The notes: generated by a model from the sequence alone, not told the origin. A stretch of 49,175 nt of DNA, filler included, from Jimgerdemannia flammicorona (GCA_003990765.1; 2 parts of 2 records of this genome joined end to end with filler, not necessarily neighbours in it); one strand, 5' to 3'. Positions 998 to 46,278 are shown, counted from the first letter of the whole stretch. Made by a program: numbers and translations.

Positions 998-1007
998 GAT
1001 TCTAAAA

Positions 1008-17234: not shown

Positions 17235-17259
17235 GTTGAGTAGTCTTGATGGGAGTGTT

Positions 17260-20200
17260 TCAGGGTGTCCTTGAGAGTGCATCAGTATTGGTGTTGGTCT
17301 TTCCTGAGTGGTGCTTGACAGTACAGTAATACTCTTACAGCCTGTAGATCTATCTGGCATATATTCCTTTGGGGTTCAGAGTGTAGAATAGCCAGGCAAA
17401 AGCAGAATGGTCCGTTTGAATAGTGAAGTGTTTTCTGACTAGGTAGTAGTGGAACTTGTCTACTGCCCAAACTACCACTAAGCATTCAAGCTTATATGAC
17501 TCATAGTTCTGTTCCACTCTGTGGGTACCTCAGCTTACATAGGAGATGACATATTCATGTCTATCTTTCTTCTGAGCTAGGACTGCTCCAAGTTCTATAG
17601 TACTTGCATCTGTCTGCAGGATGAATTCTAGGTTCCAGTCTGGTCTTCTGAGAATGGGTGCTTGGGTCAATCTGGTCTTGAGTTCATTGAAGGTTTCTTG
17701 GTGCTCCTTGGTCCATTCAAATTTGGTCTCCTTCTTCAGTAGCTCATAGATAGGTGCTGCAATGTTGGAGTATCCTTTGATGAATCTTCTGTAGTAGCTG
17801 GACAGTCCAAGGAAGGCATAGACTTCTGTAGTTGTTCTGGGTCTTGGGTAGGCTGCAAAAGTCTTGATCTTCATGGGGTCTCTGTGGATTCCAGTCTGGT
17901 TGATGAGGTGTCCTAGGTAGGCAATTTCTTGAGCTGCAAACTTGCATTTCTTAGGCTTGATATAGAGGCCATGCTCCTTGAGCCTCTTGAGGGCTAGCTG
18001 TATGTGATTGACATATTCCTGTGTAGTGTTGCTGAAGATGATCACATCATCAACATAGACAAAGAGCTATTTTCCAATCTCATTGCTGAAGACTTTATTC
18101 ATCATTCACTGGAAACTTGCTGGGGCATTGCACATTCCAAATGGTATTCGCAGATAGATATAGGTAGCATCAGATGTGATGAAGGCTGATTTCTCACTGA
18201 CATCTTAAGTGAGACCGATCTGATGGAAGTCTGAGAACAGATCAAAGGTGGTGTAGTATTTGGCTTCACTTCCAAGGGTGGTAAGAATTTCTTGAATATT
18301 TGGCAAGGGCTGTCTATTCTTCTTGGTGATGGCATTGAGTTTCCTGTAGTCAATACAGAGTCTTGGTGCAAACTCTCCAGGCTTGCTTCCTTTCTTCGGA
18401 GCAAGGACAATGGGTGAGGCCCAGGGGCTGATAGCTTGCTTGATGATCCCGGCTTCTTCTATTTCCTTGAGTTCGGCTCACAGCCACTCTCTGTAGGCAG
18501 GTGGTATGGGTCTGGCTTTCTGATAGATAGACTTGGTATCACCAGTGTCAACTTCATGGTAGTACTTGGGTTCTTGATTGTGGATATTCCTAAAGTCTGT
18601 AGCAAGTACTTCTTTGTTCTGGTACAGGATCTTGAGAAGTTGTTCCTCTAGGGGAAAGTTTTCTCCAATGATATATGTGTGCTTGTTCTGGTCCTTGTCT
18701 TTCTTGTGCTCAAGTTTAGTAATCTTGGTAGTGGTATAGGCTCCTCTTCCAGTAGATCCAAAGCCTTGTTCTTCTCTCTTGATCTTGATAAGTTCAGTGG
18801 CTTCTATGATCTTGGGCTTCTTGATTTTGTGGATCAGCATCTGGCCAATCCTGTCATACTTCTTGACTTCGAAGGGGGTGGTGTGTTTGTGATTTCTGAC
18901 TATGAGAAAAATCTTGCCAGTGTAATCAGGGTCAATTACTCCTCCTTCAACTGAGATTTTGCTTTTGGCCAGACTACTCCTGGTCTTGATAATTCTGGTA
19001 TGGTTTTCTGGCAACTTGACTCCAATTCCAGTGCCAAGTAGGATAGTGGTCTGTGGTTTGAGGGTAGCATTTTGGATGCTGGCAAGGTCTATTCCTATGG
19101 CTCCTTCAGTCTTGTATTCTGGGATCTTGGCTTCAGAGTGAAACTTCTTGACCTTGAGGGTGATGTCTGATTCTTGTTCCTCCTCATTGTCACTGTCAGC
19201 TTGAAGCTCTGGGGGCTGGTCATCTTCTTCAGCTTTCCTTTTTGCTTCAGCAGCTTCTTGCTTGTGTTTCTGTTGGTGGATTTTCCTGACTTCACTGATA
19301 CAGGACCAGCAGTCATTCAGGTGTTCAGAGCAGTATATTCTAGTACCATGGGGGCATCTTCCTTGAGGGACATACCCATCAATGATCTTGTTATACCACT
19401 GCTCATCTGTGAGCTTGAATGTCTTGTTCTTATTCTTATTCACCAAGTACATGAAGACCTCTGTGTCTTCTTCATCTCCTTCCTTCATGTCTGGCAGAAC
19501 TCCTTTGTAGACATTGATAGAAACTCATACCTTTCTTCCTCTATAGTTGATCTGCATCTTCTGGGCATTGAGGTCAATGATGGCCTTGGCCTTGTGAAGC
19601 CATTGGTTGCCAATAAGGATGTCATAGTTGGTGGTGCTTGTAACAATCACGTCTACTAGGATGATAGCTCCTCTTATCTTAATGGGGACTTCTTGGATTT
19701 TGCCAAGGGGGGTAGCTCGTATACCATCTGCTATAATATAGACCATTTTGGTGGACTCCTCAATGTCCCAACCTAGGCAGTCAATTGCCTTCTTGCTTAT
19801 GAGGCATCCTCCAGCACCAGTATCAATGATGGCATCAAAGATACAGTCTTCGATCTAGCAGAGGATATAGGCTAATGTCTTGTGCTGGTCTTCGGATTCT
19901 TCATCTGAGTTCTCAGATTCTTCTTGTGCATTGTGAGCTTCTATGATCTTGTACTCTTGATTCTTAGCAGTAGTTATAAGTTCTACTCTTAACTGCTGTC
20001 TGAAGGCAGGGACTTCAGCTAGCTGCCCAAAAGTGGCATTGACCTTCTGTTCTTTGAGATCCTTGTAGATGTCATACTGGTGGATCTTGGTCTTGTGCAG
20101 CTTCTGTTCCTTCTTGCTCTCGCTTTCTCCTGAGACTGGAGTAGTGCCTTCGATAATTTGGCACACAGCTTTGTCTAACTCCCTGTCTTGATCAATCTCC

Positions 20201-21291
20201 TTGGGTTGGGTCTTGCTTTGAATAGTGACAGCTGGAGTCTTCTTTGGTCTTCCAACTGGCTTGCTGTTGCTCTTCTTGTCATAGGGCTTGGACCAGGTTC
20301 TGGTACCTTCAGTAGCAGGGTAGAATTCAAGCTCTTCATAGTATTCTTCATCATCAGTATCACTGACCTCCTCAATGACTACTGCATTGGTTTGTTCTCT
20401 GGTTCTGCTAGTATTGCTTGGTTGGGCTTTGCATCTCATTTTGGTCATGCAACTCTTTACATAGCAGCCTTCTTCTCCACATCTGAAGCATGTGATATTG
20501 TGTTCTTCTGTAGCAGCTGCAAATCTCTGCACTGGTCTCCTGTTGGCGCTTCAGACTTCTCTAACAACATCACTGAGGTGTGCAGTCATCTTGGTGAACT
20601 GCTTGGTAAGTTCTTCCACTGGGTCAGCTTTGGCTGTCTTGGGGGTAGGTGGGGTTGGTTGTCTGTTTACAACTGTGGCAGGTAAGATACTAGTTGGCTT
20701 TGATGGCTCCATCTTGATGCCAGTTATTTTCTCCATTGAGTGTTCAGCAGGGTGTCTGGCAGTCCAATATCTCTGTGCAAAGACCACTTTCTGATCAAGG
20801 GTCAGTACAGCTGGGGTAGACCAGATTGCTAGGGCAATTTCAGAGTAAACTCCTTTGAGGAAGGTTGAATCCACTATTTGTTCCTTGAGGGCATCATCAT
20901 AGCCAGCCAAGACAATCTGGTGGCAGATTCGGTTATAGAATAAGTTGGGATCTTCACTAAGTTCTTGGCAGATAGTATTGAGTTGATCTTTGAGAGCTTG
21001 CTTGATCTCTTCGGTATAATATGTTGTTCTGAGGAAGGTCTTCATGTTGGTAAGTTTGACTGCATCAGCACCAGCAATAGTGACTGCATTAAACTTGTCT
21101 CTGGCAGGTCCTCTGAGGCTAACTGGTAGAAGGGCCAATTGAGCATCCACACCAAGGGCTCGTACAGTGGCGAATTGTTCAAAGTTTTCAATGAAGGTCA
21201 GGATTGACTCTTTAGTAGTATATTCATAGAATGTGGGGGGATGCATTTCCATCTTATCTTGAATTCTTGCAGGGGTGACTCTTGTAGTCAA
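17260..21291 (-). pseudogene. gag-pol: Gypsy-1 Gag-Pol (capsid, CCHC knuckle, aspartic protease, dUTPase, RT, RNaseH) in one frame with in-frame stops
   Basis: Seen: ORFs 20551..21291, 19855..20532, 19525..19746, 18478..19488 and 17530..18045 are all in frame; motifs CFRCGEEG, IIDTGA, RLCIDYRKLN, YVDD, LQTDAS, TDALSRTP*. Confidence 0.93.
18749..19164 (-). CDS. dut: Trimeric dUTPase domain within Gypsy-1 Pol
   Basis: Seen: dUTPase motifs I-V: AIGIDL, TRSSLA, GGVIDPDYTGKI, DRIGQM, REEQGFGSTG. Confidence 0.92.
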
Positions 21292-21372
21292 AGTAGTTGT
21301 TGTGGGAGTTGTTTGTTTTTCAGCTTGAAAGTGAGGGATTCATCTTGAATCACCAGCCAATGGGTACCAAGT

Positions 21373-22918
21373 TATCACATGTGGTTGCTGAGTCCTTCAA
21401 ATATGCCAGATTCTCTTCAAGGTATATCTCTTAGACTAACTCAAGTTTGTTATAAGCAAGTTCTTATTGGAGTGCCTTCCCAAGATCTTATAGTCCTCAA
21501 ACTTCTTATCTTTAACTGTCTTGTTATCTCTTAGATTGCTTGCAAGGAAGTGTGTATAAGTGAAACCAGAACTGACTTTATTTCAGAGGAAATAAGAGAG
21601 GTATTTATATAAAATACAATTCAATGGTTACTAAGATATAAAGCTAAATATAAATTCCAATAACTAAAACTACTAAGTTCCAGAGTCGGTACTGATAGTT
21701 GTACAGGTTCAGGATGCTGGTATTATTTAGTGTCACATCAAAATGCTGGTGCTGGAACAATTTCACATCATCTCAGAATACTGGTGCTGGCATTATCCAG
21801 TGTTACATGAGAATACTGGTGTTGGCATTATCCAGTATAATACAGAACTTAGAGCAGAAAGTTCAAGACCATGGGAGCTTCATCATCATCATCACTGAAG
21901 GAGATGAGATCTGCAAATTTGTCATGTAGGTTGCATGTTTCACATACTTCGCATGCTTCAGGTATGTTATACAGGATGATGTCATTGATGATGTCATCAC
22001 GTTCAGCTGTGGCGGGGAAATCAGGGACAAGGTCTGGAGCTCTCCAGTCTATGAGGTTCTCTTCTATAAAATAAGGAACAAATGTGGGGTCTTGGGGAGA
22101 TCTAACCCAGATGCTTGGGCCTTAGAATACTGAGATCAATCCTTGCAGGAATTGGTCTGGGTTGTCCTGAAGGATAGGGTGCCAGAAGTCTTCTACTTCT
22201 TCACTGTTGAGGGTGATAGTAGACTGGGCTTCTGTAGCCACCCTGGCTTCTAGTGCATTGATACAGCAGAATGATAGGTCTCTGAAGTCTGAGACTCTAA
22301 CATACTCCAAGTTGGGGATCGACCATAGTGCATGCCTGAAGATCTGATGGATCTTCTTAGCTGTCCTTGTTTCATATATATCTATGGGAGTGGCATCTTG
22401 TAGCTCTTGGGTGCTGGCTTGTGGGAACTCCTGGTAGAGAAGATTTCCTATTTTGTACTCCTGCCACATTTGGAGGCATTCGGTAGCAATAGTAATTCTT
22501 GTTTCCATTTCACAACAGTAGAGAATGAAGTGGTAAGGGTCTGCAGTACCCAGGTTGACACTAGGAGTCCTTCTTGAGTGGGTCCTCATGGCTCTTCTGA
22601 TGTCTTGGAACATCCTTTCCTTGACTGAGATACCTTGGTGATTCCTTGACCTTGAGGTTTGGCAGGCAGCAGGCATTTCATTTGTGGTAAGTCTTTGAGC
22701 TATTTTGGGATTGGTGGTTCTTGTTAGTTGCTGCTACTGCAGTTCCTTGATCCTTCTTTTATATTCTTCAGGATGCTTGTACTGTGGTCACAATGACTCA
22801 CAGTTGGTCATCATTGCTTATCTTGTATGATGTATGATCTTCTTGTACTCCGATCTGGTGGCTTGCAAGGAAAGGCTGTCTCTGGTGCTGATGTCATCAT
22901 TCTGGGGTCACCATTACA
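21373..22918 (-). repeat. Gypsy-1 5' LTR
   Basis: Seen: direct repeat of 14129-15675; left end reads TATCAC (TG>TA mutated). Confidence 0.95.
22122..22676 (-). CDS. ORF3 (184 aa open, unknown function) inside the 5' LTR
   Basis: Seen: uninterrupted 184-codon ORF, conserved in the other LTR and in the 1008-1500 copy; resembles the Gypsy-2 ORF at 45724-46239. Confidence 0.7.
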   Translation of the reverse strand: MPAACQTSRSRNHQGISVKERMFQDIRRAMRTHSRRTPSVNLGTADPYHFILYCCEMETRITIATECLQMWQEYKIGNLLYQEFPQASTQELQDATPIDIYETRTAKKIHQIFRHALWSIPNLEYVRVSDFRDLSFCCINALEARVATEAQSTITLNSEEVEDFWHPILQDNPDQFLQGLISVF

Positions 22919-24538: not shown

Positions 24539-24638
24539 NNNNNNNNNNNNNNNNNNNNNNNNNNNNNNNNNNNNNNNNNNNNTTAATTAATTAANNNNNN
24601 NNNNNNNNNNNNNNNNNNNNNNNNNNNNNNNNNNNNNN
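24539..24638. other. Artificial contig spacer (44 N + TTAATTAATTAA + 44 N = 100 bp)
   Basis: Seen directly; the 12-mer places stop codons in all six frames. Confidence 0.95.
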
Positions 24639-25534: not shown

Positions 25535-25869
25535 ATTGTCCTGCGGTCCTGTCTGGCAGGTTCATTTTCGGCCTCAACAGGTTCCAGCGCGACGCTTTGT
25601 TGGCAAAAAGATCCGACGTTTTTCAGGCAATGACCACCTTTCCTTCATCTGCACAGGGAATTTATTAGCTAGGAAACGCGTCAGATAGGTGACGAGCACC
25701 TTTGTAGTTATTTTTGCAGGTAAATATGCAGGAGGGGTGGATAACATCAAATACATATCATTCAAAAGCTGTATCATTTGCTAAAGTTATGAAATGTGTG
25801 TGGCGTAGAGGTATTATGGATAGCATAACGATGTTCAAAGCTCGCCGCATGGATGTGTGTTGACTAAGT
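25535..25869 (+). repeat. Direct repeat copy 1 (~330 bp), also present at ~28575-28972
   Basis: Seen: gtcctgtctggcagg...aaagatccgac...gggaatttattagctaggaaa...gcatggatgtgtgttg shared, with indels. Confidence 0.9.
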
Positions 25870-25994
25870 TAGCCAAGTATTGAAATTTTTGCAGGCATAT
25901 ATTTGCGTGCGTTACAGACTAAGGGGATAATGATTGATATACTACTATTTGGATATCTGAACACGAGAAGGTACGATGCCATCTGATACAAAAA

Positions 25995-26030: not shown

Positions 26031-26048
26031 GACCGAGAAACAAACAAA

Positions 26049-26137
<89 letters not shown>
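25995..26137. repeat. (AAT)n microsatellite followed by a ~90-nt poly(A) tract
   Basis: Seen directly. Confidence 0.9.
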
Positions 26138-28574: not shown

Positions 28575-28972
28575 TTGTTGTCCTGCAGTCCTGTCTGGCA
28601 GGCCCATTTTTGGCCCAACAGGTTCCAGCGCGATGCTTTACATAAGAAATTCGTTAGCAAAGACGTCGCAAAAGATCCGACATTTTTCAGGCAATGACCA
28701 CCCTTCCTTCATCTGCACAGGGAATTTATTAGCTAGGAAATGCGTCAGATAGGTGACAAAGAAGAAGGCACCTTTGATATCTATGTAATTACGTAACGTA
28801 GTTATTTTTGCAGGCAAATATGCAGGAGGGGTGGATAACATGCGTTCTCAGATATATATATATATATCATTCAAAAGCTGTATCATTTGCTAAAGTTATG
28901 AAACGTGTATGGCGTATTATGGCTAGCATAATGATGTTCAAAGCTCACCGCATGGATGTGTGTTGGCTAAGT
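28575..28972 (+). repeat. Direct repeat copy 2
   Basis: Seen: homologous to 25535-25869. Confidence 0.9.
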
Positions 28973-28979
28973 AGCCGCT

Positions 28980-30090
28980 CACAACAGTTCCGACATACAG
29001 AGGATCCAGCTCGGTCAAGGCCATGTTCTGCTTCAGAGACTCAGCTAGGGCGCGTGCCTCCTCGTCGCCGATGCCGTTGTCTGAACATGAATAAGGGATG
29101 GATGAGCAAACACGCACAGATCGTTAGCTTGATTCCATCATGCAGCCGCACACAATGCTTCACACAGTTCTGACATACATTCGAGATTCGGCGTGGCCAA
29201 GGTCGTGTTCTGCTTCAGAGACTCGACTATGGCGCGTGCCCCCTCGTAGCCGATGCTGTTCCCTGAACATAAACAGGGGATGGATGAGCAAACACGCACA
29301 GATCGTTAGCTTGATTCCATCACGCAGCCGCACACAATGCTTCACACAGTTCCGACATACCTCCGAGATTCAGCGTGGTCAAGGTCGTGTTCTGTTTCAG
29401 AGACTCGGTATGGCACGTGCTTCCTCGTCGCCGATGCTGTTCCCTAAGCATAAAACAGGGGATGGATGAGCGAACATGCACATATCGTGAGATTAATCCC
29501 ATCGCGCAGCTGCACACCATACTTCCCAGTTCCGACATACTTCGGAGATCCAGCGTGGTCAAGGTCATGTTCTGCTTCGAGACTCGGCTAGGGCGCGTGC
29601 CCCCTCATCGCCGATGCTGTTGACCAAACATGAACAGGGGATGGATGAGCGAACACGCACAGATCGCGAGCTTGATTCCATCGCGCAGCTGCACACAATA
29701 CGTCACACAGTTTCGACATACAGAGTCGTCAAGGTCGTGTTTTGCTTCAGTGACTCAGCTAAGGCGCGTGCCCCCTCGTGGAGAAAAGAGGATGGATGAG
29801 CAAACACGCACAGATCGTGAACTCGATTCCATTGTGCAGCTGCACACAATGCTTCACACAGTTCCGACATATGTTCGAGAGTCAGCATAGTCAAGGTTGT
29901 GTTCTGCTTCAGAGACTCGGCTAGGGCGCGTGCCCCCTCGCCGCCGATGCTGTTCCCTGAACATGAACAGAGGATGGATGAGGGAACACGCACAGATCGT
30001 GAGCTTGATTCCATCTCACAGCTGCACACAATGCTTCACATACTTTCGACATGCTTTCGAGATTCAGCGTCAGAGACTCGGCTAGGAACA
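28980..30090 (-). pseudogene. RI-like/NLRC3-type 28-aa LRR array, one 84-bp exon per ~181-bp exon+intron unit (~7 units)
   Basis: Seen: NSIGGEGARALAESLKQNTTLTTLDL repeats, each followed by a GTATGT donor and preceded by a (C/T)AG acceptor; some units partly deleted. Confidence 0.85.
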
Positions 30091-30460
30091 ATTTCACGAC
30101 TTCGACGTGCCCACAAACCGCGGCATAGCACAGCAGCATCCATCCCTTCTTCTTGGCGTTAGCGTCCGCCCCGAACTCAGCCACGAGCAGCCTCACGACT
30201 TCGATGTACCCTCAATTCGCAGCCATGTGCAGTAGCGTCCATCCGTCAATGTTCTTGGCATTGGCGTCCGCCCCGAACACGGCTATGAGTACGATTATGA
30301 ACTCGACATGCCCGCTTTCTGCGGCGCGGTGCACTGGCGTGTTATCTTTCTTGTCCTTTGCATCGGCGTTTGCTTTGAATTCGAATACTAGTAATTCGAA
30401 CACGTTTATGTGGCTTTTCTCGGCAGCTAGGTGCACCGGAGTCCGACTTGGCTGTCCTTC
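30091..30460 (-). pseudogene. Ankyrin repeats (~4)
   Basis: Seen: TPVHLAAEKSHINVFELLV, NTPVHRAAESGHVEFI...GADANAKNIDGWTLLHMAA, CYAAVCGHVEVVKL. Confidence 0.9.
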
Positions 30461-30589
30461 AATTCAACTTTGGCGTTGGGTTGATTGAGTAGTGATTGGA
30501 TCAATGGCGATGAACAGCGGAAGAGAAAGATCAATTTGATCGACCGCGAATTTGTAATAACATTGATTCCAATACTCCGTTTTATTTTT

Positions 30590-30860
30590 GTTCTTCTCAA
30601 CGCCATCGCCTGTTCTATAGCAACTTAAACCTTCTTTTGTGCTCTTTTGTCGCCAGCTTCTGCAGCTTTCAAGTGCCTTGTCTAAGTCAACGCCACTCTT
30701 CCTTCCTCGTAAAAAACAACAAGGGTTAACTGCGCTTCTATATGTCCATTCATCCCAGATTTAGTGCACCACTCATTCTGCTTCTCTAGATCATTTGCAA
30801 CGCCGAAGCCTACACTGTAACATAGTGCAGTATAAAACTGTATCTCCGAATCGTTCCACA
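30590..30860 (-). pseudogene. Sel1-like (TPR) repeats, frameshifted
   Basis: Seen: QFYTALCYSVGFGVANDLEK..EWCTKSGMNGHIEAQ and LKAAEAGDKRAQ. Confidence 0.7.
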
Positions 30861-30899
30861 TGCCGATAGCGGAATTTCATCATCGCCAAACTGGGGAAG

Positions 30900-31800
30900 T
30901 CACGTAGTCACGGAACCTTGAATGAGTTCATTTAGCCAACTCTGTTGCCAAAGTTTGTGTAAATTGTTCTCTGTAGATAATGCCAATGTAGTTATTTGAT
31001 CCAAAGACCTCTTTGCGAGCGCTGCTGAAAAGGGAATCTCAAATACCCTTAACTGGCCAAGCAACGATTTAAGACTATCATCCAGGTAATCAAAGCTATA
31101 CTGGATGCGGGTGTCAACCGAATCGTAACGATCTCCAAAAATATCTGTTGCACTCCGTAACCGGTCGCTGAAGTTGCCGTTGAATTGGTCAACAAGTTCC
31201 ATGCAGTTGTTGAGATACCTCCAAGACGAATCGATAATAGATGACCGCCTGCGAGACGACTAATATTCATTGCATTATCATTGTTGATGTTATTTAAACG
31301 TTGATATGCCCATTGCCGGAAAACCTGCACGCTGTCATGTGGTTCTAAGCCATTCAACTCGATAAATTCCTCATTAGGCCAGCCAAGTGCAATTCTTGAT
31401 GTCGCGAGAATTTTGATGTTCTTCAAAGATATCGCATCCTTTTTGGTCGCTGGGTCTCCTTGTTCGGTTGCGTGTCTGAGATCTTCCATATTTTCAAGAT
31501 AAACCAGCATAGCCCCTCCCCGTTCTAACTTGGCCATCACTGTATTTTGTCGAATTTTAGGATCCCGAGACTTTTCGATGTCGATGTTGAGAAATCTGGC
31601 AATTGTTGAGATTACTGAACCAGAGCTTGGGTTTCCAACAAGGGATATCACCAAAACTCTGCCAGAGTCGAATTTATTGGCCGCTTGAACTGCCAATGCC
31701 GTTTACCCATTCCACCAAACCCGCGAATGGTGATATAGCGAGTTTTCTGTCACTCAGTAGTTCTTCCAAATTTTGAAGCTGCTGACGTCCCATATGTGTT
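30900..31800 (-). pseudogene. NB-ARC/STAND ATPase B
   Basis: Seen: YITIRGFGGMGK[T]ALA (Walker A, 1-bp deletion), MLVYLENMED (Walker B), KILATSR, ELNGLEPHDSVQVF, AGGHLLSIRL (GxP-like), SFDYLDDSLKSLLGQLRVF (winged helix). Confidence 0.85.
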
Positions 31801-32599
31801 GGCGTTGCCAAAATTTATGTCCGTTACCGGTTGGTTCCCATTGCCGACTTTAGTTTGGTGAATGAAAAGCATCTTTGTCAGTGAGCGATTCCTATTAGTT
31901 TCCCCGGCGCATATTCTATACAAAATTTCCGCAGTATTTGAGGGCTATAGATAATGTCTAGCAGTTTGTGTATTCAAATAAGCAGTTAGATGGTGGTATT
32001 ACGAGTTTTCATTTTTTCTAAAAATCGTCGCTCAGGGAGTGGAATAGACTGCAACTCACTGAGGGAGATTCTGCCCTAATTATAAAGCGCGTCTTCTCCA
32101 GACCAGACCGCAAAGTCTCCATGGATTTCTTCATCAGACCAATATTCTTTTTGGCATTTGTGGTAGATCGTTTGGCGAGATTGGTATCGGTATGATACAC
32201 ACACAGTATGACGGCGATTTCTTTTCTGTCACAATCGGTATAATGTGCTCCATGCAGAACTTAGGAAAGCTATTGTGATGCTTTACAACCAATCCACCAA
32301 ATAAAATTTGCTTCTGCACGCCATCAATTTTGCGTTGGCACCAGAAATGTCGACAATTTCGTAGTATTGTACGCCATAAGTCTTGTTCTTCACTTCACTA
32401 CGTACATGGTCTTGGATACTTCGGAGTTGCCATTCGAGCACCATGGAAGAAAAATCAAAAGATGAAAAAAAAGTGCACAGAGGATAATTGAATGACCGCA
32501 TTTCATTTTCATTACTCACCATGTTTTGATGGCTTGGTAAAGCCAATTACAAACGTGTCCTCATATACGCCGAGTATCAGCAAAGTCAGTCGCAGTTTC

Positions 32600-33640
32600 A
32601 TCACAGAATTGTACTCTCTCACACCTTCCCTAACAGCGACATGGATCTTGTATTCATCATCTCTTTTCGACAACAACTTCATATCGCATAGTTGCTGCAG
32701 GGTTTCATTACTACAATTACCCTTTCTGATGACGAACAAATGAAGTTGACAAAATAACATACGAAAGCGAGAACCCTTTCAGCGATTGGTCCGGTAAAGA
32801 GAGAACACATACAAAGTAGCAGGCGGTGCTGGGTTGGAAGCTCGCCGATGGTTGTTGGAAACGGGGTTCGAGGCTTTTACTGCCATGTGAGCCATCCGCG
32901 AGCATTGTACTGAAGTTTTCAAGAGCGAGTTTTTTAAGTGATGCACCCTGATGTTGTGGTTTGCTGATGGCTTGACCAAGGATTCCAAAAAGTGGATACC
33001 CGCCTACGGTCGTGTAGCAACTGCATGATATTTGCTTTCTTCTCCATCCTTTGCCTCACTTGCGGAACAAGATTTCGAATGAACAACCTGACGCCTCTCT
33101 CAATGTCCAAGTCAGTAAAAACCATCGAGAGTCATCACGCCCTCCTCTGCTATCCACCATAGTCGCTGGTGCGATGTCGCAAGATTCTTACTGAGATCCC
33201 TAGTATCGACATAATTTTCTGAAGCCAGTTTACCAATGCTACAGCGTCTTCATCGCCTTTGACATGTGCGCGCTTCAAGACATCGGCTTGATCAAGGACC
33301 AACAAACTCGTCGGATGAGGCTGTGAAAGTCATTACCGAAATCTTCCTGGAACATGACTTGACTCAGACGCTGAAGATATTCGATGACCGATACCTCATA
33401 CGAAGGATCGAATCGCCAAGCGAAGATCCCACCGGGGAAGAGATACGCCATCCACCTAACTGCCTTCTCAGCCAACGTCGTTTACCTTGACCGGCAATAC
33501 CTTCAATGATGCACATAGGACGAGTTTGTGTCCCTCTTTTGCCATGCGCTTCAAAACGTGGGTTATCCCGATAAGCTTCTCCTTGCGTCCGCAAAAAAAT
33601 CGCGTGAAAGAGATCTCTTCGAGGTTGTTAGGGGGCATTT
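32600..33640 (-). pseudogene. NB-ARC/STAND ATPase A
   Basis: Seen across frameshifts: NNLEEISFTRFFCGRKEKL, CIIEGIAGQGK[T]TLAEKAV..LFPGG, LVLDQADVLKRAHVKGDEDAVAL, RILATSH, GVRLF, VGGYPL, LQQLCDMKLL...YKIHVAVRE. Confidence 0.8.
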
Positions 33641-33699
33641 GGGCTTCGATCGTGGGCTTGCCCGACTCGCACTTGAACGCGCCATCATCCTCCCGAAAC

Positions 33700-33930
33700 G
33701 TGGATGAGTAGAGCAGAGCACCATGGCACCGGGGAAGTAGTCGTGTTGTCGGGTGTCTTTTGGGTCTTTCATGGAGGCGCGCGTTTCCAACATCACCTTT
33801 TCGGCTGTGCAGCCGCTGGCAAGGCACTGATAGAATTTGTACTCGAATTTCCGGGTGGGCAGGGGGCAGTGTGAACCGATGGTGTATGGAATGCCGTTTT
33901 CAACCAGGTCTCGGGCGACATGACGAGTAT
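33700..33930 (-). pseudogene. C-terminal half of a CHAT (caspase-like) domain, upstream of NB-ARC A
   Basis: Seen: TRHVARDLVENGIPYTIG...FEYKFYQCLASG..AEKVMLETR...FPGAMVL, which fits the post-catalytic-Cys CHAT consensus (my pattern match). Confidence 0.65.
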
Positions 33931-34390
33931 CTCAACGGCGACCACGACCTCGATGCCATCCCCTGGGAGTACGCTTGGGGAAACAACACGCCTCTGTCGA
34001 ATAATGCGGAGCTGAAAAACCATGGGCATTTGACCAACAAGTTCGTTTACAGACAGAAGATTCCTCAATTATCGGAACTTCAGCGACTTCCACTGCGCAT
34101 AGTCACCGTCGTACCGGACCCCATCATCCCGCCGAGCGATCCCAACGCGAACCAATTTCCATATGTGATGCATACGAGAAAAATAATCGAGCGTTATTAC
34201 TGCAGCCGACCGTCGACCAAATATACGAGTTGCTTAGGAGAAATCCTGAGATGGCCACGGTGCTTCATTTCATGGGACACTGTAGATCGCAGAACAACGG
34301 TGCGAGGGCACTCATCTTTGAAGATCAAGATACAGGCGGCCCCGACTTCGCTGATGCGTTGCACCTTAAGCGTTTCTGTCTGCCTGTAGA
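33931..34390 (+). pseudogene. N-terminal half of a CHAT domain, in inverted orientation
   Basis: Seen: LDAIPWEYAW, PLRIVTVVPDP, PTVDQIYELL, VLHFMGHC (catalytic His motif), ALIFED; ends at AT-rich relic DNA. Confidence 0.8.
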
Positions 34391-35998
34391 TTTCTTAAGA
34401 TCTTTTATAAGATTGTCAGTATCAATGAACAGAGTATCTCATCTACTATAGATCTTATGTATACTATATATTAAGAATCTCTTAAGCTAAAGAAACTCAA
34501 TATTAATCTACTTATTATTAAAGTGATCAGTAGCTACTATCTCAATAGTAGAAATATACATAGTATCTCTTTATAGCCTCTATCTTAATAAACTAAATAT
34601 TCTTACTTAATCTCTTACAAATATTACTTGTCTTTATATATTATAGATATAATTAAAACTATTGAAAAGTATTTTGTTGATAATAATAATACTATTTTTT
34701 AAGATTATAATTATCTATACTTTAGTCACACTTTGTTATAGTATATTTTTATATTTTTATATTTTTTCTCTAGTTTTTTCTTATCTTTTCTTGAATATTC
34801 AACAATATTCTACTATCTTCTAAATACTTAGAAATCCTCTCTTAGTACCAAGACTTCATTAGAACATTTTTATCTTTTCTTAGTATAAAGTATCTTATCT
34901 TAGCTAGTTATAAAATCTTTTAAAACATTATAGAACTTTATATATTAGTTATTTTTGCTAAGAACTACTTTCTTGGTTTTTTTTTATCTCTAAGATCCTT
35001 CTGAATCTTTCTTTCAGATCTTGTATAAATATCTTCTTTTTCTACTTAAATAAAGCTTAGAATACTTTCTTTAGAAATTCTTCAAAATTACTTAAATCTA
35101 TAAGTATCTCTTTAAGCTACTTTAGGTCTACTAGAACTTTTCAGATTTAGTTACTTTTTTAAAGAAACTAGAACTATTATACTTAAGAGTTAATTTTTAT
35201 TACTTCTTTATAAATATCTCTAAGCTTTTCTTAAAAGAAGATTAATACTTTCTGAATTTATAGTTATAGATTTTGATCTATTTATAAAATTCTTCTTTAT
35301 TACTTTAGTATTACTAAATTTTATTTAAATTTATTAATATTAAATAGCTAAAGATAGTTACTACTATTTTTAAATTAGTTATCAGATTTTTAATATTATA
35401 TTTACTAAAATTATATAAGTATAGGAGTATATATTAAGAATTTCAAATATTTTAAAGTTTTAAATTTCTCAGAAATAAGTTATTTTTTATTTAATACTTA
35501 TATATGTTTTTTATAAATATAAATATAGTAAACTAATATATATCTAATTTAGACTAGCCAAGTTGGCTTAGATATATAAAATAATTAAAACTAAACTAAA
35601 GTGACTCAGATATAATTAAAACTATATTATATTATATAATTATTTTATATAAATTACTAAATAGCTTTAGTTATTTTTTTTTTTAAAAATCAAACTATAT
35701 TTATAGCTATATATAATATATATAAAAGAATATCTCTTAAGTTTAAAGAATACCTCTAGCTGAAGGTTATATATAGCTAATATTGTTAAAGATTTTAAAT
35801 CCTTTAACCAGAAGTTTTTTTTATAAAATAATTCTTGAAGCTAATTAATATATAAAATCTGAACTATATGATCTTCTAACAGATATTTGTAGATATCAGT
35901 CTCAGAGACTAACAAAGAGCTTATATATAATCAATACTATTAAAATATATGAGAAGACTGTATACTTATAGTAACAGAATCATAGATAGTATAGTAAT
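34391..35998. other. Extremely AT-rich, CpG-free relic DNA (unidentifiable decayed TE)
   Basis: Seen: abrupt compositional switch at ~34390, TA-rich, no ORFs in the track. Confidence 0.55.
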
Positions 35999-37423
35999 TA
36001 TTATAAAAAGAAAGATATCTTATTAAAGTTACATAGGTCATATATTTTATATATCACTGATGAATGACATAAATCTGATAGAATGGTATAAGTCACATAT
36101 TGATATATTGAGTTGTCATCACAATACTCCCACTCAATGAGATATATAATCTCAAAAAAAAAAAAATACAAACTAGAATAAAAATAATATAACATATATA
36201 AAAACTAGAACTGCATATAACTCAAAATTACTATTATAAAATTCTATATTTAAGGAATTTTTACAGATTGAAAAGTATTCTGAAATTATCCAAAATATCT
36301 ATAAAATCTACTTATAGATGGAAGATATAGTAAGAATGTAAAATATAGATATAAATAATATAAATACAATAAGAGAGGCTTTTGAGAGTCTGAAAAATAT
36401 CCTATAAATAACTGTTAGATTGATATATTCCTCATAAGACCTATTTCTTGAATGTATAGCTCAAAATTCAGCTTTAAAAGGACTTTTATAAATGAATTAG
36501 TGATCATATACTCTGTAGAGATATATTCTAAGTATAAAGTATTATTTTCTATACATTTCTATATAAAATGATATTATATATTAATATATTTCATTTTACT
36601 ATAATGTACAGAGTTCTTGGTAAGTGCAATTGTAAACTAGTTATTCTGATATAGCATAGTACTCTGTTTTTGAGTAAATCTAAGTTCTTTTAATAGTTTG
36701 TAGAGCCAAATAGTTTCCTTTATTATTAATAATAATGCCTAGTACTCTACCTATATTGATGATATTATTATAGATGATTACTTGTATATTTGCTATGATA
36801 TGATAGACTCTTGGTCACTAATGTGAAAGAGATACCCAGTCATAAATCAGTAGTTATCCAGATTACCTGTCCAATTAGTATTATATATATTAGATAGTTG
36901 AATGGTATTGTTATTACTCCTACTCAATCTGCTAAGATTGAGTATATAGTATATCATACTCTTAAGATATCTGAGAATTCTTTTAATAGTGCTTCAATAT
37001 ATATTATTATAGTAGGAGGAATATTGTGCCCCCTTATTCATAGTATATAATATATCAGACTTTATTCCTAGTATGAGATATATAAGAGAATCAACTATTT
37101 GCTAATATGGTATATCTTTGGTATTGTTTTTAGCTAGTATACTGTCATTATTCTCAAAAGTAGTATCTAGCTTTCTTAACTTTACAGAAGTATCTATAGA
37201 AGTACCATTTATTAATATTGAAATATTTGAGAATTGTTTGAGTATATATCACTTGCAAGAGGTACATATATAACATATATATTTCTATCATATATGATAG
37301 ATATTCCCAAAAGGAAGAATATATTACTCATATTTATTATTTTGAATTCTCAGCATAGGGCTTCTTTAACTTCATTAAGCCTATTCTTACTAGTAATAAT
37401 AATTATATTATCAATCTAGATAC

Positions 37424-38711
37424 TGTAACAAATCAAGACATACTACCCAAATTATACCTTAGCCAGATAATATGAACAATTAGCCAAGATGATGTAAATA
37501 CATAGTATAGTAACTGACAACCATTGCTGTAGAAAACCATATAAATAGCCAGACATATCAGAATGGGTCTGTTTATCTGTACAGACTCTGTACACTGTAC
37601 AGACTACTGTATAGATTCTGTACACTATACAGACTCTATATATCTACCATAAGTAGCAAACTTATAATTAGCTATATAGCAACTAGATAGCAACCAACTT
37701 ATATAAATTACTCCAGAGACAAGAGTGAATAAACCTCAGTCCAAAAGTTGAATACAAACTAAAGCAAAAGTCAATTGTCTGGTACACTTAGGAGAAATAT
37801 CTGCCAAAAGCCACTTGATCTAGAAAGAATTGCAATACTTAGGAGATACACCTGCCAATGAGCTACTGCCAAGAAGTTATGAGCTTGGTTCTCTTCTCTT
37901 CCACTCCAGTCCACTTTCTAATATAAAGAACAAGTCTGTTTTTAGTTCACTTGCCAGATAAGCCTGAAGATTTGTTGCTCAAGTTCAAGGAAGAACTTCA
38001 CCACCATTTCTCAGAAGACTGCTAATTCAGGAAGAATCCACATTATCCACCATTTTTGAGTTATCCACATTTTCAGAGAACCCATGCCATCTAAGTAGTA
38101 TTTCCAGTTGAAGTCAAACCTGCAACATCTGAGTTATCTGAGTTATCCAAATTATCCACTGTCAAGTTATTCATTATTCCCAGTGAGTCCGAGAAGAACT
38201 TGCAACCAGTATAATTCCCAGCAAACCATCCCAGGAAGAACTCACACTATCCTCTATTTCCAGTGAGCCAAATTGAGTTATCTGCCAGAAATCGCATACT
38301 TTTGGAGATCATCACACTATACAGAGATCGCCCATCACTCAAGAAGGAGAACTGCTAAATTGCTAGACCATTATACAGAGATCATTACACTATACAAATT
38401 GTAGTATTCTCAGTTGACCCAAATAAGAAACTTGTTGTGCTATATATGAATTCTACCAATTTCCAGTTGATCCAAGAAGGAAATCCATTTACACCCAAAT
38501 CACCCCTATATCCAGAGAACCATCCCAATTAGAAAATCAACATACAAATCACTTGCAGATATCTAACTTTGACTATTATACCACTAAACACCAAGGACCT
38601 CAGAAATCTTAAAATATTTTATTGCTTTTGGACAAAGTAACTGAGGGCTCAAGCCAAACTACATCAACCCCCAACCTTGTAATTTGCCTCCATTGAGCTA
38701 GGTATATTACA
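37424..38711 (+). repeat. Gypsy-2 5' LTR
   Basis: Seen: direct repeat of 46279-47571; internal TGTACAGACTC tandem repeats. Confidence 0.95.
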
Positions 38712-38949
38712 TTTGAGGACTCAACTGGGAACATTTCAAAATTGATGTGACTTTTCAGCTCACAAGAACTCATAGTCAAACTGGATACATTTGATACAAT
38801 ACCAACCTCTACTACTACAGGAGAACCAGTTATCACCAGCATCTGGACAGAAAGAGAAGTAATTACATCAAGACTTACCAACTACCCAGCATCAGAAGAT
38901 TCCCAACCAGAAGGCAGTACAGCCTGAAATCTTCAATCAGATCAATCAG

Positions 38950-41900
38950 ACAATATAGGCAGCCCTGCTAAAGATTTCAAAGAACTTGTACAAAAACTAG
39001 AAGATTTTATCACATGAACCCAAGACCTTACAACTAGATACCCCATATCAGTTCCACTAATCTCACCAATAGAATCTTTACCACAACCCCTTGCAGAGTT
39101 AGAAGTAGCTCCTATAAGAATACTTAGGCTTATTCTACTTTGTCTGAGGTCCAGAACACCATCCTCAAGATACCCAAGCACCCACATCTCCAGTGACAAT
39201 TCAGAAAGTGAATCAGAATCAGAGTCCAAACCAGAACTAGAATCAGAAGAAAGTGATGATGAAATAGCCACCTTACTGCCAACCTTTGCAGAATACCCAG
39301 AGGAAGACTCCAGAGAATTTCTTGATAGAATTGAAGGAATTGCAGCCTTGAGGAATCTCTCAGATGAAAGAAAAATCACCATCTATAAGGCTCAGCTTAG
39401 AGAACCAGCTAGAGGAATTTTCCATTGAATAGTAAATAACCCAGATTCAGAACTAGTGAGACAGATATAAGCAGCAATGCCTTATGAGCTAGAATATGAG
39501 GCCATGGTCCACTGGCTTATTGAAAAGTATGCAGGAAATGAAACCCACCATAAGGCTCAAGAATCCATCATGGGGATGAAGATAAATCTCAGAGAATCAC
39601 TCAGAGCCTTCTTCACAAGAATTCAGAAGAGAATACATGCTGCCAGGTTCAATGCCACCAACCAGGACATCATAGGTCCAATGACCTTCATGAATGGAAT
39701 TCCCCCAAACATTGTCCAGTATATCCACACCCTAGGTATTAAAAGGTCCAAAGAGCAAGTGGATATAGCCCAAGGATTCTTCGATGTCAGACAAGGAACT
39801 ACCTAGAGTGATCATGATAAGAAAAAAGATAAAGAAGACATCCTGGTCAAAGCCCTACAAGGACTCCTTCAAGGACAAGAAAGATCTGAAGAAAGAAGGC
39901 CAGCCAAGAAAGGAAAGAAGGACAGAAGTGAAATCTAAGACCTTAGCTCCAAGTTGGACCAATTGGTTGGATAGATTGAAAAACTCACTACACACAAAAA
40001 TTGGGGCTACCAAGATAACAGAGGATACCCATTACAGAGGAGCCAAGGTTATCCACCAAGAGATAACAGAAATTATCAGCAAGAAGAAAGAAGATATCCA
40101 GTCCAAGACAGAGCCCAAGTCCAATGCTTTCACTGTAGACAATTCAGGTACTATGCTACTGAATGTGACAACAAAAGAAGTAACCAAAGGAACTCAGAAT
40201 CATCAAACCAAAGGAATGACACCCAGTACAAGAAGACTGAAGCCCATCCTGTTAAATATTTTGAGGAAGTAAGTAACAGTGAAGACTACAGTGACCTAGA
40301 CTTACATATACCCTACTAAGGTCACTACCCAGAAAACAGTCTATCCAGTGGAGAAAAGAAAGAGATCTGTAGGAAGACCATCCAGGAATGTCAGCAGAAG
40401 AGTTATCCAAGAGGAAGATGAAGAACATGAGGAAGAACAAGTAGAAACACCTCTCCAAACTCCCTCACCTTTTGTCCCTGAGACAAATAAGTTGCCACCA
40501 GAAGATGAAGAAATGGAACAAGAAGAACAGGAACCTGCTGCCCCAAAGTCAAAGAAGAAATACACTCTGAAGACTATGCCTAGAGACATTTACAATGAAG
40601 CCTGGCAGAAGATTCAAGAAGCCAAGATGAAAGTTCCTCTCCTGCAGTTCCTGTAACTAATACCAGCTGGAGTCCAAAACAAATTATTGAGAACAACCAG
40701 GTCCAGCACTGGCCAAGTTCCAATCCAGCAAGAACCAGTTCCCATCTCTGTCCAAGCAGCCAAAAGGTATGTCAGCACCTATCTATATAGAGATATTGGA
40801 GGACAAAAGGTGAAGATCCTCATAGATACAGGAGCAGCTATCTGTGTCATTGCCAAGTGATTCTTGGACACCCTCCAATGGCCCATTGATGGACCATCCA
40901 ACCTCAGTATCATAGTAGCAGATAGAGCCCAAACTCAACCCTTTGGAGAAGTATGAAATATCACCATCTCTCTTGGATACATTCAGTTCTCTATCCCCAA
41001 AGCTGTTGACACAGGAGCTATCACCTATGACATAATTCTTAGCACCAACTGGATAAAGGAAATGAATACAGTTGTTGATATCAGTCAACAAGTACTCAAG
41101 TTTGACTACTAAGGCAAGAAGTACAGAGTTAAGATGACCAGCTATGAGCAATCAATGAAGAAGAAGAAGGTCACTATTCAGGAGGAATATGCCAGCAGTG
41201 AAGAATCTACTACAGAGGAAGAAGAAGAATCTGAAGATGAAAATGATTCCAGACTCAATCTTTGAATTAACCTGGTGGATGACAGACCAGAAGACAATGT
41301 GTGGGCCAAGAACACTATCCCCATCACCATTGGAGCTATTGCAGGGGAAATCAAAGGATGCTCTATCTGCCTCAAGAGACACAATTGTCCCAAGCATTTC
41401 TCCAAGATCATGGGAACAAGGAAATCACCTGGTACAGCCTGTCCAGAGTGCAGAAAAAAGAAGAAGAAATGCAGACATGTCCTAGAAACACCTGCAACCA
41501 AAGCTGCAGAGGTGCAAGCAATTTGGGGTCAAGAATTATCTAAAAAAGAAGAAACTTCTGACCAAGAAGTTCCTGAGCAAGAAGCACCCAAAGAAGAAGA
41601 GGTCCCCAAACTCATTCCCTGGGATAACCCTTGCTAGACACTATCTGAAGATAATGACTCTTGGAATATAGAAGAAGGACCCAGTACAATCACTGTTATC
41701 CCAAAGAAAGAAACTCACCAAGAAAAGGCTTTTAGGCTAGAAAGATGTCCACACTAAATGGTCTTTCACTCTCCTCAAGACTACTGCTATCAGTACCATT
41801 TACTAGACCAATAGGAGAGATAGAGACCCCAGAGACCAGAACCCTCAAATATACTTATACAGTTAACTACCTTCCAAGAAGTTACCACTAAGTTGCAAAG

Positions 41901-44663
41901 CTGATTCAGGGGACAAGGCTTCTTCACCCAGACAGAAATATATCCCTTGTCTACTCTTCCACCCACTTATGACTAAGATGAGTACCAATTCCCAAAACAA
42001 TAAGAGATCAATAACTGGGAACATTACTTCTGAGCAATGGGATATTGCAACCATGGAAGACACCCAGACTGCCAAGACTGCAGGCATCAGAAGATCTATC
42101 TCAGTTATGATGTTGTAGTTCACACCTTGAAGAGAGAAGATAACTAAAGCTAGATCTAAAAAAGTCAGACCAAAAAGCCAGGAAGGAGGACCCTCAAGAT
42201 CTATGATTTAGGAGAAGATATCCTAACCCTCATCAGATATGCAATCCACCAAGGATGGGCAGAAGATGCCACCAACTTCATGGAAACCCTTGACCCTATA
42301 GAAAGAAGGGGAATCAACTATCTCCAAGACCCCTCTACTGGAGCTAGATGGCCACACCTCAACCTTAGAGCTTGGAGGCTCTCCACTAGTGGAGCTTCAG
42401 CCTTAGGAAAGCCTGAACTCAGTAAGGACATTGCCCAGTATGCCCTGCTGCACCCCAAGGCCAAACCCCTGACCAAAGCCCACCCAGAGGATGTAGGATA
42501 TGATCTTCACAGTCTGGAGGATGAATTCATCAAGCCTGGAAAGACCTTTATGATCAGAACTGGACAAGCCATGCAGCCACCTCAAGGAACTTACATACAA
42601 CTGACCTCAAGGTCTGGATTGGCCAGACAAGGAATAACTGTGGAAGGAGGAACCATTGACCCAGGATATATAGGTGAAATCAAGGTTATCCTATACAACA
42701 GCAGTACAGAATGGCACCAAATCATTAGAGGACAGAAGATTGCCCAAGCAGTCTTCATGAAGGTCAAGACCCCACAGTTACAAGAAGTCTCTGAACTAAC
42801 TGAAGGAACAAGATAAGCCAAGGGATTTGGAAGTTCAGACAGGAAGAAAGTACATCTCCTTCAAGTCAACCACCTCAAGAGGAATATTCCCCAGCAAGTG
42901 TACTGGCAACCAGTCAGACTACACAAGAATCTCATCCTGAAGTCTAGAGAACAAACTACCTTCAAAATCTTTGCACCACCTGACCCCAGAAATCTTTTCT
43001 TCAAACCCAAGGAAGATATCCCACACCTGGATATAGAGGGACATACATTCCCTGACAAGATGAATCCAGTATACTCCTGAGCAACCAACCAAAGTTGGGA
43101 GACCATCATCTTGCCAAAAGGAACCATCATAGGACATCTGATGCCTTTTCTCAACTGAACTCATAGAGAAGTTTATGAACTAAACCTATCAGGAAATGAC
43201 AAAAGGTCCCAGAAGAAAGGTAAGGCCCCTCTGCGACCCAGGAGACAGTGAAGCCTTCCACCAATATTGGAGAAGAATTGACACCTCAACAATAGCAACA
43301 ACTAGTAGAACTTCTCAACAAATATCAAGATATCTTCACCACTGATTATGGCAACCTGCCATACAACCCATTATATCACTACAGCATAAATACAGGAAAT
43401 GCAACACCCATCCAGCAGAAGCCCTATAGAATACCCCATCACTTGAAAACATTTGAAAAGGAGTACATTCAAGAACTTTTAGACAATGAAGTCATCCGAC
43501 CCTTTACCAGCCCTTGGACCAGCCCTATACTTATTGTATCAAAGAAAGGAGGATAGAGACTTTGTGTAGATTACAGGAAACTCAATTCAGTCACTGAAAA
43601 GGATGCCTACCCTTTGCCCAGAATTGATGACCTTTTGGACCAGTTACAAGGTGTCAGATACTTCAGCAGTATGGACCTCTTTACAGAATTCCATGAGATC
43701 CCCATAGACTCCAAGGACATTTAAAAGACAGCCTTCCTTGCTCTGGGAAAACTATTTGAATACCTCCAAATGCCCTATGGACTCTGCAATACACTCTCCA
43801 CCTTTCAGAGGATGATGAATTCGGTCTATGCCCTCTTGATCTACCACTGTCTGATTGTATATATGGATGATTCCAACATCTATTCAGCAAATTTTGAAGA
43901 ACACCTACACTATCTAGAGGAATTCTTCAAGCTCACCTGCAAGAACCACTTGAGATTGGATGCAAAGAAATGCTACTTTGGGAAACAGAATCTTGAATTC
44001 CTTGGATTCATAGTTTCAAAAGAAGGAACCCATGCAGACCCAAAGAAAACTGAGAAGATCAACAATTGGCCAATACCCAAGACTCCAAAGGAAATACTAT
44101 CATTTCTGATGCTAGTATCCTACTATAGAAGGTTTATCAAGGACTTTGTCCAAATCGCTGCCCCAATCCAAATCCTTCTCAAGAAAGGAGTACCATTTAA
44201 GTAGACGAAATTACAAGAAACAGCCTTCTAAGAACTCAAGAACTGCATGACTATAGCACTAATTCTTATGTGCCCCAATCTACAGAAGCCATTCATCTTA
44301 TATATAGATGCTTCCAAAGATGGCCTTGGAGCAGTTCTAGCCCAAGAAGGACCTAACCAACAACACTATGTGATAGCTTATATAAGTAGAGCTACCAATC
44401 AGCAGTAGATGAATTATGGTAGCACCAAACTGGAGTGTCTTGCAGTCATATGAGCAGTCACCCTGTTAAAGCATTACCTCATTAGAAAAAGGTTCACTCT
44501 GATCACAGACCATGTAGCTCTCAAATGGCTATTCAATCACAAGGAACCCACTAGAATCCTAGTCTGCTGGATCCTTATTCTTCAGGATTACAAAATCACC
44601 ATCATCCACAAAGCAGAGAAAGCTCACAACAATGTTGATGTACTTTTCCACCAGCCCCAATAA
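38950..44663 (+). pseudogene. gag-pol: Gypsy-2 Gag-Pol (capsid, knuckle, protease, Cys-rich spacer, dUTPase, RT, RNaseH)
   Basis: Seen: LPTFAEYPEEDSREFLDRIE, CFHCRQFRYYATEC, ILIDTGA, LCVDYRKLN, MPYGLCN, YMDD, YIDASKDGLGAVL, HNNVDVLFHQPQ*. Start position approximate. Confidence 0.92.
42435..42840 (+). CDS. dut: dUTPase domain within Gypsy-2 Pol (one stop near motif V)
   Basis: Seen: DVGYDL, SRSGLA, GGTIDPGYIGEI, GQKIAQAV, R*AKGFGSS. Confidence 0.92.
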
Positions 44664-46239: not shown

Positions 46240-46278
46240 AGAACAGTCTGGGACAGACTATCCTTCAGTGGGGGCTGA

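Follow-up and report, generated by a model that had tools for sequence, protein, structure and literature searches.

Probable remains of two, possibly three, NLR-type pseudogenes in a transposon-rich stretch of Jimgerdemannia flammicorona DNA

The stretch analysed here (the window) comprises 49,175 nucleotides of the fungus Jimgerdemannia flammicorona (GCA_003990765.1), filler included, and holds a cluster of fragments of NLR-type (STAND NTPase) genes. A module-by-module check detected CHAT, two NB-ARC domains (a putative A, and B), Sel1, ankyrin repeats (ANK) and leucine-rich repeats (LRR), together spanning 28,979-34,448, and on the minus strand the modules follow one another from the C-terminal part of CHAT to the LRR. 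No module is free of disabling lesions, which range from an inversion and frameshifts to stops, truncations and the loss of splice sites. On the minus strand of 28.9-34.5 kb no stop-free frame exceeds 217 residues, and neither an open frame across the modules nor the intact splice sites of a functional NLR were found. TGA, TAG and TAA all occur as stops in the cluster, and codon reassignment would therefore not restore the frames. The region is, with good confidence, a graveyard of NLR-type pseudogenes with two, possibly three, relics in a transposon-rich, gene-poor setting. The features of the cluster are as follows.

33937-34448, plus strand: putative inverted N-terminal two-thirds of CHAT (relic A), profile positions 79 to ~244, in two frames (+1, then +3)
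33680-33922, minus strand: putative C-terminal third of CHAT (relic A), profile positions 245-324 at E 1.2e-7, tblastn with P0048 at E 3.8e-8
33195-33716, minus strand: linker and putative NB-ARC A (relic A), from profile hits, with four frame changes
31930-33194, minus strand: decayed DNA between relics A and B, without significant match
30921-31872, minus strand: short N-terminal part, NB-ARC B and the helical region after it (relic B), with shifts at ~31750, 31704 and 31213
30454-30924, minus strand: Sel1-like repeat region and linker to ANK (relic B), with frame changes at ~30905, 30857, 30627, 30517 and 30450 and internal deletions
30077-30448, minus strand: about 3.7 ankyrin repeats (relic B), from Pfam Ank and Ank_2, with 54% tblastn identity to the ANK repeats of P0003
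28979-30085, minus strand: array of seven ribonuclease inhibitor (RI)-type LRR units, from Tandem Repeats Finder, alignment and phmmer against PDB
28670-28976, no strand assigned: dispersed repeat truncating the LRR array, matching 25606-25874 in a self-BLAST (79.9% over 314 bp)

An NB-ARC-Sel1-ANK relic and its relatives

By tblastn with its relatives, relic B extends over 31872-30077, with the N-terminus, NB-ARC, helical region, Sel1 block and ANK in order. The homologue-guided alignments run through frames -3/-2/-1/-3/-2, and the protein and DNA coordinates remain contiguous at the changes, which therefore represent frameshifts and not introns. A scripted frameshift-aware alignment, an analysis for which the earlier note had asked, was guided by P0097, P0003 and P0009 and located the shifts listed above, the one at ~30517 with one guide only. 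Relic B is broken by at least seven frame changes as well as by in-frame stops.

The 217-residue frame (31052-31702, minus strand) lies in NB-ARC B and matches 86 proteins at E<=0.001 by HMMER (best 8.9e-39, 52% identity). Pfam itself gives no match to this frame; the relatives carry Pfam NB-ARC (PF00931), and the sensor motif ILATSR is present. The P-loop can be read as RGFGGMGK/TALAVQA, in which the slash marks a frame break between K and T by loss of one A, so that the Walker A motif GFGGMGK/T is present in a broken frame. Furthermore, the Walker B motif LVYLENMED now has Glu in place of an Asp that is invariant in eight of eight aligned relatives, and the GLPL-like motif GGHPLS of the relatives reads GGHLLS. 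Pro141, invariant in the same number of aligned relatives, is deleted together with an 8-residue conserved stretch.

Similar damage is seen further downstream. Approximately 25 residues are absent ahead of the Sel1 repeat, which is itself interrupted by deletions and by a stop; an in-frame TAG is located at 30684-30682. The Pfam Sel1 family (PF08238) misses its gathering score on the window (E 0.043; 14.9 bits, where 30.7 are required); the window clearly aligns to the Sel1-bearing parts of P0003 (residues 418-474), P0097 and P0009. The ankyrin repeats (PF00023/PF12796) are recognised by Pfam Ank at 30215-30463 on the minus strand (E 2.5e-16; 59.3 bits, above the cut-off of 21.1) and by Ank_2 at 29924-30211 on the same strand (E 1.3e-07). 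An in-frame TGA (30214-30212) falls within a conserved ANK helix that reads AAN-stop-GYIEVV. Several other apparent in-frame stops of relic B stem from frameshifts close by.

The architecture of the relatives was investigated by a Pfam scan of 20 relatives of NB-ARC B. All four full-length top matches (P0003, P0005, P0007 and P0009) consist of NB-ARC, one Sel1 repeat (Pfam E 1e-10 to 1.9e-8) and many ANK repeats, P0212 contains these domains as well, and the NB-ARC of the STAND B relatives starts within ~40-60 residues of the N-terminus. CHAT is found in none of these five full-length close relatives, nor is a second STAND; the more distant matches to NB-ARC B have the order CHAT-NB-ARC-TPR or NB-ARC-TPR. 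Across the 20 scanned relatives, Pfam detected no LRR family, no protein with two NB-ARC domains and none joining CHAT with ANK. The sole named close relative is a partial protein of Endogone sp. (RUS13303.1), and the others come from unannotated contigs, all five full-length ones from contigs of 4-7 kb. The named CHAT-NB-ARC-TPR proteins, two of ten looked up, are bacterial (MBI3159877.1, Chloroflexota; HEY1352143.1, Ktedonobacteraceae). A metagenome scan with an alignment of NB-ARC alone gave five loci, only one of which is close (L001, 46% identity) and which, at 1,138 bp, is too short for a downstream view. A search with the whole-family alignment returned so many generic ankyrin proteins that it is uninformative on LRR, and a full-text literature search returned no paper joining NB-ARC, Sel1, ankyrin, NLR and fungal.

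The members of this family, the five full-length relatives and RUS13303.1, share with relic B the domain order and the Sel1 block (FYTALCYGVGFGV...EAQLTLA), with 44-54% identity over the NB-ARC. Unlike theirs, the copy in the window is broken; it retains fewer ANK repeats (~3.7), and LRR units come after them. The NB-ARC-Sel1-ANK family to which relic B belongs is genuine, with intact members in public contigs. The alignments show relic B as a single decayed gene of the order NB-ARC-Sel1-ANK, probably once a stand-alone receptor.

A CHAT-NB-ARC relic divided over two strands

For relic A, a custom profile made from residues 1-760 of 41 CHAT-NB-ARC-TPR proteins was run against the window translated in six frames (all 2,446 pieces). 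The profile matches collinearly over two strands with E-values of 1.2e-7 to 3.5e-3. On the plus strand, profile positions 79-135 match 33937-34131 (E 2.6e-3) and positions 167-214 match 34203-34358 (E 3.9e-6), the latter piece holding the caspase-like His motif HFMGHC at 34266-34283. The match is on the plus strand up to position ~244 and on the minus strand from position 245, with 15 bp between the two pieces, which fits a single inversion of 33937-34448 (~0.5 kb). Such an inversion would divide CHAT between a part with the catalytic His and a C-terminal part. The far end of the inverted piece adjoins AT-rich repeat DNA at the expected place of CHAT residues 1-78. The catalytic Cys is not identifiable, its region being the boundary between the inversion and the AT-rich DNA; a contiguous CHAT (PF12770) with the His and Cys dyad is absent, and the domain is divided over two strands.

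The profile matches of the linker and NB-ARC A continue on the minus strand down to 33195 (positions 311-368, E 4.7e-4; 385-426, E 1.2e-3; 451-488, E 9.5e-5), the P-loop helix scoring E 1.2e-3 and the Walker B motif LLVLDQAD E 9.5e-5. The P-loop GIAGQGK/TTLAEKAV is interrupted by a 1-nt frameshift near 33480, and the Walker B reads SLLVLDQAD within 33308-33195. The same collinear two-strand pattern is given by dozens of tblastn high-scoring pairs from many CHAT-NB-ARC-TPR proteins, at identities of ~30-38%. For the C-terminal CHAT piece, the nearest ESM Atlas cluster is 'CHAT domain-containing protein' with a sub-threshold score of 0.78, which serves as a lead only. On relic A, Pfam matched neither CHAT nor NB-ARC; a homologue search with a 68-residue P-loop fragment of STAND A gave no matches, and a TPR region or other repeat sensor of relic A was undetectable. 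The profile and tblastn patterns suggest that relic A is a former CHAT protease fused to an NB-ARC ATPase, probably of the kind seen in CHAT-NB-ARC-TPR proteins.

The interval between the two relics, previously given as an unknown segment of ~500 bp, is in fact a segment of ~1.26 kb (33195-31930) without significant match. There is no Pfam match in it and no ESM Atlas match for its frame at 32720-33055; the best E-value with the custom profiles is 0.047 (family-B profile, 33192-33121), and none with the CHAT-NB-ARC profile is below 0.41. A GLPL-like motif, TVGGYPLFG, is readable by eye near 33000, and the segment may be the remainder of NB-ARC A. We also considered relics A and B as paralogous duplicates, as had been proposed for the two STANDs, and rejected this: they have no nucleotide repeat or similarity in common, and so are not recent paralogues.

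As a separate observation, both unrelated NB-ARC relics carry the same P-loop lesion (~33480 and ~31704): a single A is missing from GGT-AAA-ACG (G-K-T), at GGT-AAA/CG. Either chance at a site prone to slippage or a sequencing error peculiar to this context could account for it.

The LRR array and its joint with ANK

Tandem Repeats Finder reports a 182-bp unit in 6.2 copies at 28979-30070. Each unit comprises an 84-bp phase-1 exon, which encodes one 28-residue LRR with the product NSIGxEGARALAESLKQNTTLTxLNLE, and an intron of ~98 bp running from GTATGT through a CTAAC-like branch site to CAG. The units are in tandem and conform to the RI-type repeat (LxxLxLxxNxIGxxGA, 28-29 residues). One 27-residue exon searched against PDB with phmmer matched 35 sequences at E<=1, with 5irm_A the best (E 1.5e-9), which we take to be rabbit NOD2 although the database labels it 'Uncharacterized protein'; LRRC34, DRC5 and ribonuclease inhibitor are also among the matches (9fqr_MA, 8glv_Ez, 3tsr_E). 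As the Pfam LRR_6 model (PF13516) extends across the exon junction, it stays below threshold on the array (E 9.2e-4; 19.5 bits, with the cut-off at 23.4) and gives E 0.09 or no match on single LRR exons.

The state of the seven units, the junction unit included, is as follows; in only one of them are the two splice sites preserved and the 84-nt exon open.

Unit u0: 21-nt deletion, GC donor
Unit u1: donor changed from GT to AT
Unit u2: no acceptor, both exon ends lost, deletions of 20 nt and 11 nt
Unit u3: acceptor lost, one nucleotide missing
Unit u4: one nucleotide missing
Unit u5: intact, exon 29179-29262
Unit u6: 2 nt short, intron cut off

In the four complete units the exons are 86.3% and the introns 83.7% identical, which indicates no extra constraint on the LRR exons; C>T and G>A account for 34 of the 84 differences from the unit consensus. 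The array stops inside the u6 intron exactly at the start of the dispersed repeat, where u6 departs from the consensus.

The last ANK repeat joins the LRR in frame and without a spacer at 30085 (VVKLFLAESLTLNLES). Either relic B ended in this array, or a deletion joined B to what remains of a third gene; the first of these is a possible but unlikely reading. It proposes an ancestor with the order NB-ARC-Sel1-ANK-LRR and one LRR per 84-bp phase-1 exon, in which case the open reading frame (ORF) predictions of the relatives would end at the first intron. ANK and LRR lie in a consistent order on the same strand, and two of the five full-length relatives end soon after an LxLxG-like motif past the last ANK (P0007, ...ELNLKGMLEIS; P0009, ...ELDLKGLLEMHEFT, with ELDLKG). 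These tails resemble the end of the window's exon read into the intron (...TLNLES/MSKV), and the five relatives, on their short contigs, may have been called without splicing. However, the likeness of the tails is not significant, shuffled sequences reaching the score in 14.5% (P0007) and 27% (P0009) of cases, and P0003, P0005 and P0212 have no such tail. The joint is located mid-exon, ~31 nt into the 84-nt unit and beside the 21-nt deletion, and looks like an illegitimate deletion joint; the absence of a Pfam LRR family from the scanned relatives points the same way. The survey PMC4986451 (Dyrka et al. 2014) did not find LRR in fungal NLRs, as far as its sections drawn on here extend, and those of PMC9815663 (Wojciechowski et al. 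2022) also report their absence; the 2025 survey PMC12258605 included LRR profiles, and its corresponding sections contain no statement of LRR-NLRs. An LRR array native to relic B is therefore the less probable of the two origins by our own estimate, and we regard as still more doubtful that relic B was once a fungal NB-ARC-Sel1-ANK-LRR receptor whose intact family members carry the same hidden 84-bp LRR exons. If that were true, fungi would own NOD-LRR receptors, missed since ORF-style and Pfam surveys halt at the first intron. The in-frame ANK-to-LRR joint is the sole lead here to such a fungal NOD-LRR architecture, which the cited sections of PMC4986451 and PMC9815663 report as absent.

Setting, overall reading and known systems

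The cluster sits between two degenerate Ty3/Gypsy-type long terminal repeat (LTR) retrotransposons, with a dUTPase between protease and reverse transcriptase, in a window where GC-poor blocks (18-25% GC) alternate with blocks of 41-54% GC. The main repeats around it are listed below.

14128-22918, minus strand: LTR retrotransposon 1, LTRs 14128-15675 and 21372-22918, 92.7% identical
37424-47557, plus strand: LTR retrotransposon 2, LTRs 37424-38697 and 46279-47557, 87.7% identical
1006-3302: partial retrotransposon copy
34450-37423, no strand assigned: AT-rich repeated DNA, 18-32% GC, with inverted matches to 10578-11054 and 3981-4594

The LTR identities indicate a long neutral residence. The mismatches are nearly all transitions (104 of 108 in element 1, 141 of 148 in element 2), mostly in CpA context (69 of the 104 and 96 of the 141), and the LTR pairs carry a decay signature of CpA to TpA like that of repeat-induced point mutation (RIP). 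RIP-type indices are also found in the AT-rich DNA at 35-36 kb (TpA/ApT 1.3, substrate index 0.5). RIP as the cause of the decay of the NLR relics was considered and rejected, the indices at 29-34 kb (TpA/ApT 0.35-0.65, substrate index 1.2-1.4) not being RIP-like and the low share of C>T and G>A among the LRR units also speaking against it.

Several further elements were noted in the window. Retrotransposon 1 has in-frame stops at 19525, 19855 and 20551, and a Copia-type Pol_BBD fragment is located at 11687-11965. Two arrays of a 33-bp tandem repeat (4678-4864 and 10177-10383) are inverted relative to each other (4682-4787 vs 10367-10262, 84%) and enclose ~5.5 kb with a hAT-associated DUF659-like frame at 6155-6604 (E 5e-4); arrays and enclosed DNA may form a DNA transposon with subterminal repeats. 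Within a stretch of 46-48% GC at 24.6-28.9 kb, whose frames match no Pfam family on either strand, a 100-nt A-run (26038-26137, 91% A) could represent a poly(A) tail left by a retroposed sequence. Runs of N, 44 nt each, at 24539-24582 and 24595-24638 may be assembly gaps or masked stretches. The region 48001-49175 is strongly G-skewed (GC skew 0.51) and includes an Exo_endo_phos fragment at 48672-49076 (E 7.7e-6) that probably stems from a non-LTR retrotransposon endonuclease.

The possibility that relic B, and perhaps A, is functional and that the frameshifts are homopolymer errors of the assembly is very unlikely. The shifts at ~31750, 31704, 33480 and 30877 are each one A lost from an A-run, and the coding sequence between the shifts is well conserved. 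Such errors would not produce the TGA in the conserved ANK helix, the 8-residue and ~25-residue deletions in conserved blocks, the Asp-to-Glu change of Walker B, the donor change from GT to AT, the acceptor losses, the two deletions (20 nt and 11 nt) of LRR unit u2 or the inversion in CHAT, none of which is a homopolymer indel. Nor is the assembly rich in indels, the LTR pairs having four gap events each over 1.3-1.55 kb, one of the eight in a homopolymer. Weaker still, and hardly credible, is one intact multi-exon gene of the order CHAT-NB-ARC-NB-ARC-Sel1-ANK-LRR with introns at the frame changes: the minus-strand order and the real introns of the LRR part would suit it, but the frame changes fall where protein and DNA coordinates stay contiguous, stops lie inside conserved aligned blocks, two-thirds of CHAT are on the opposite strand, and no scanned relative has two NB-ARC domains or CHAT with ANK.

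Three points weigh against a graveyard of pseudogenes. NB-ARC B still retains its 49-54% identity to relatives, so its decay is not ancient. CHAT and NB-ARC A were recognised by a home-made profile with weak individual E-values where Pfam is silent. At least three, and probably four, of the frameshifts in A and B are single-A losses in A-runs, the pattern expected from systematic homopolymer error. Errors in the A-runs would leave the verdict unchanged, since the inversion, stops, multi-residue deletions, splice-site changes and truncations are not of the homopolymer type.

Collectively, these observations favour a cluster of adjacent pseudogenes, and a single functional gene with a new architecture is not supported. 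The six-module inventory and order given in the earlier note were essentially borne out, as was the relation to NLRs, but the modules do not belong to one gene and none is intact; its placement of all modules on one strand does not hold for the N-terminal two-thirds of CHAT. The novel architecture it envisaged (CHAT with a double STAND, or STAND-Sel1-ANK-LRR) is not supported, given the relatives of B, which lack CHAT and a second STAND, and the lesions throughout. The outcome it had named as the contrary one, a pseudogene junkyard, agrees with the present result except for the ANK-to-LRR link. We propose that the relics were originally all on one strand. The ancestral intact receptors would have been nucleotide-switched and oligomerising, with CHAT in the ancestor of relic A acting as a proteolytic effector and the repeats as sensors; probably nothing in the cluster is now expressed as a functional protein. 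The cluster would then be nothing unusual, having arisen through the birth and death of NLR genes in a compartment rich in repeats, and the seeming combination of two STANDs with six domain types would be an artefact of adjacent relics read as one gene.

Compared with known systems, relic B is similar to the fungal NB-ARC/NACHT NLRs described in the sections of PMC4986451 and PMC9815663 used here, which carry ANK, TPR or WD40 sensors: a central NB-ARC is followed by superstructure-forming ANK, with highly similar internal repeats in a variable repeat-rich setting. It differs from them in having Sel1 between NB-ARC and ANK, in the attached RI-type LRR array, in being a pseudogene, and in that its relatives have no recognisable N-terminal effector domain.

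Relic A is similar to CHAT-NB-ARC-TPR STAND proteins in the succession of CHAT, linker and NB-ARC, collinear with the 41-protein profile, whereas its identity to them is only ~30-38%, its TPR is undetectable and its CHAT is split by the inversion. The CHAT-NB-ARC architecture is known from bacterial cell-death NLRs and reportedly from fungal ones too. Fungal CHAT-NLRs adjoining gasdermin genes are reported in the part of PMC9815663 considered here. In the present window, Pfam found no gasdermin family, and hence no protease-NLR/gasdermin pair, in 54 frames of at least 90 residues outside the cluster and 18 frames of 46-153 residues at 24.8-29.2 kb, a scan of stop-free frames that short or intron-split genes would escape.

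The LRR array shares with the RI-type LRRs of metazoan NLRs, LRRC34 and DRC5 the 28-residue unit NxIGxEGAxALAExLKxNxTLxxLxL. Unlike these, the window array is fungal and decayed, its 84-bp exons are co-duplicated with 98-bp introns, and its link to a NOD is only putative. The one repeat per symmetric phase-1 exon seen in the window is reminiscent of vertebrate NLRs, whose LRRs follow an exon-per-repeat layout.

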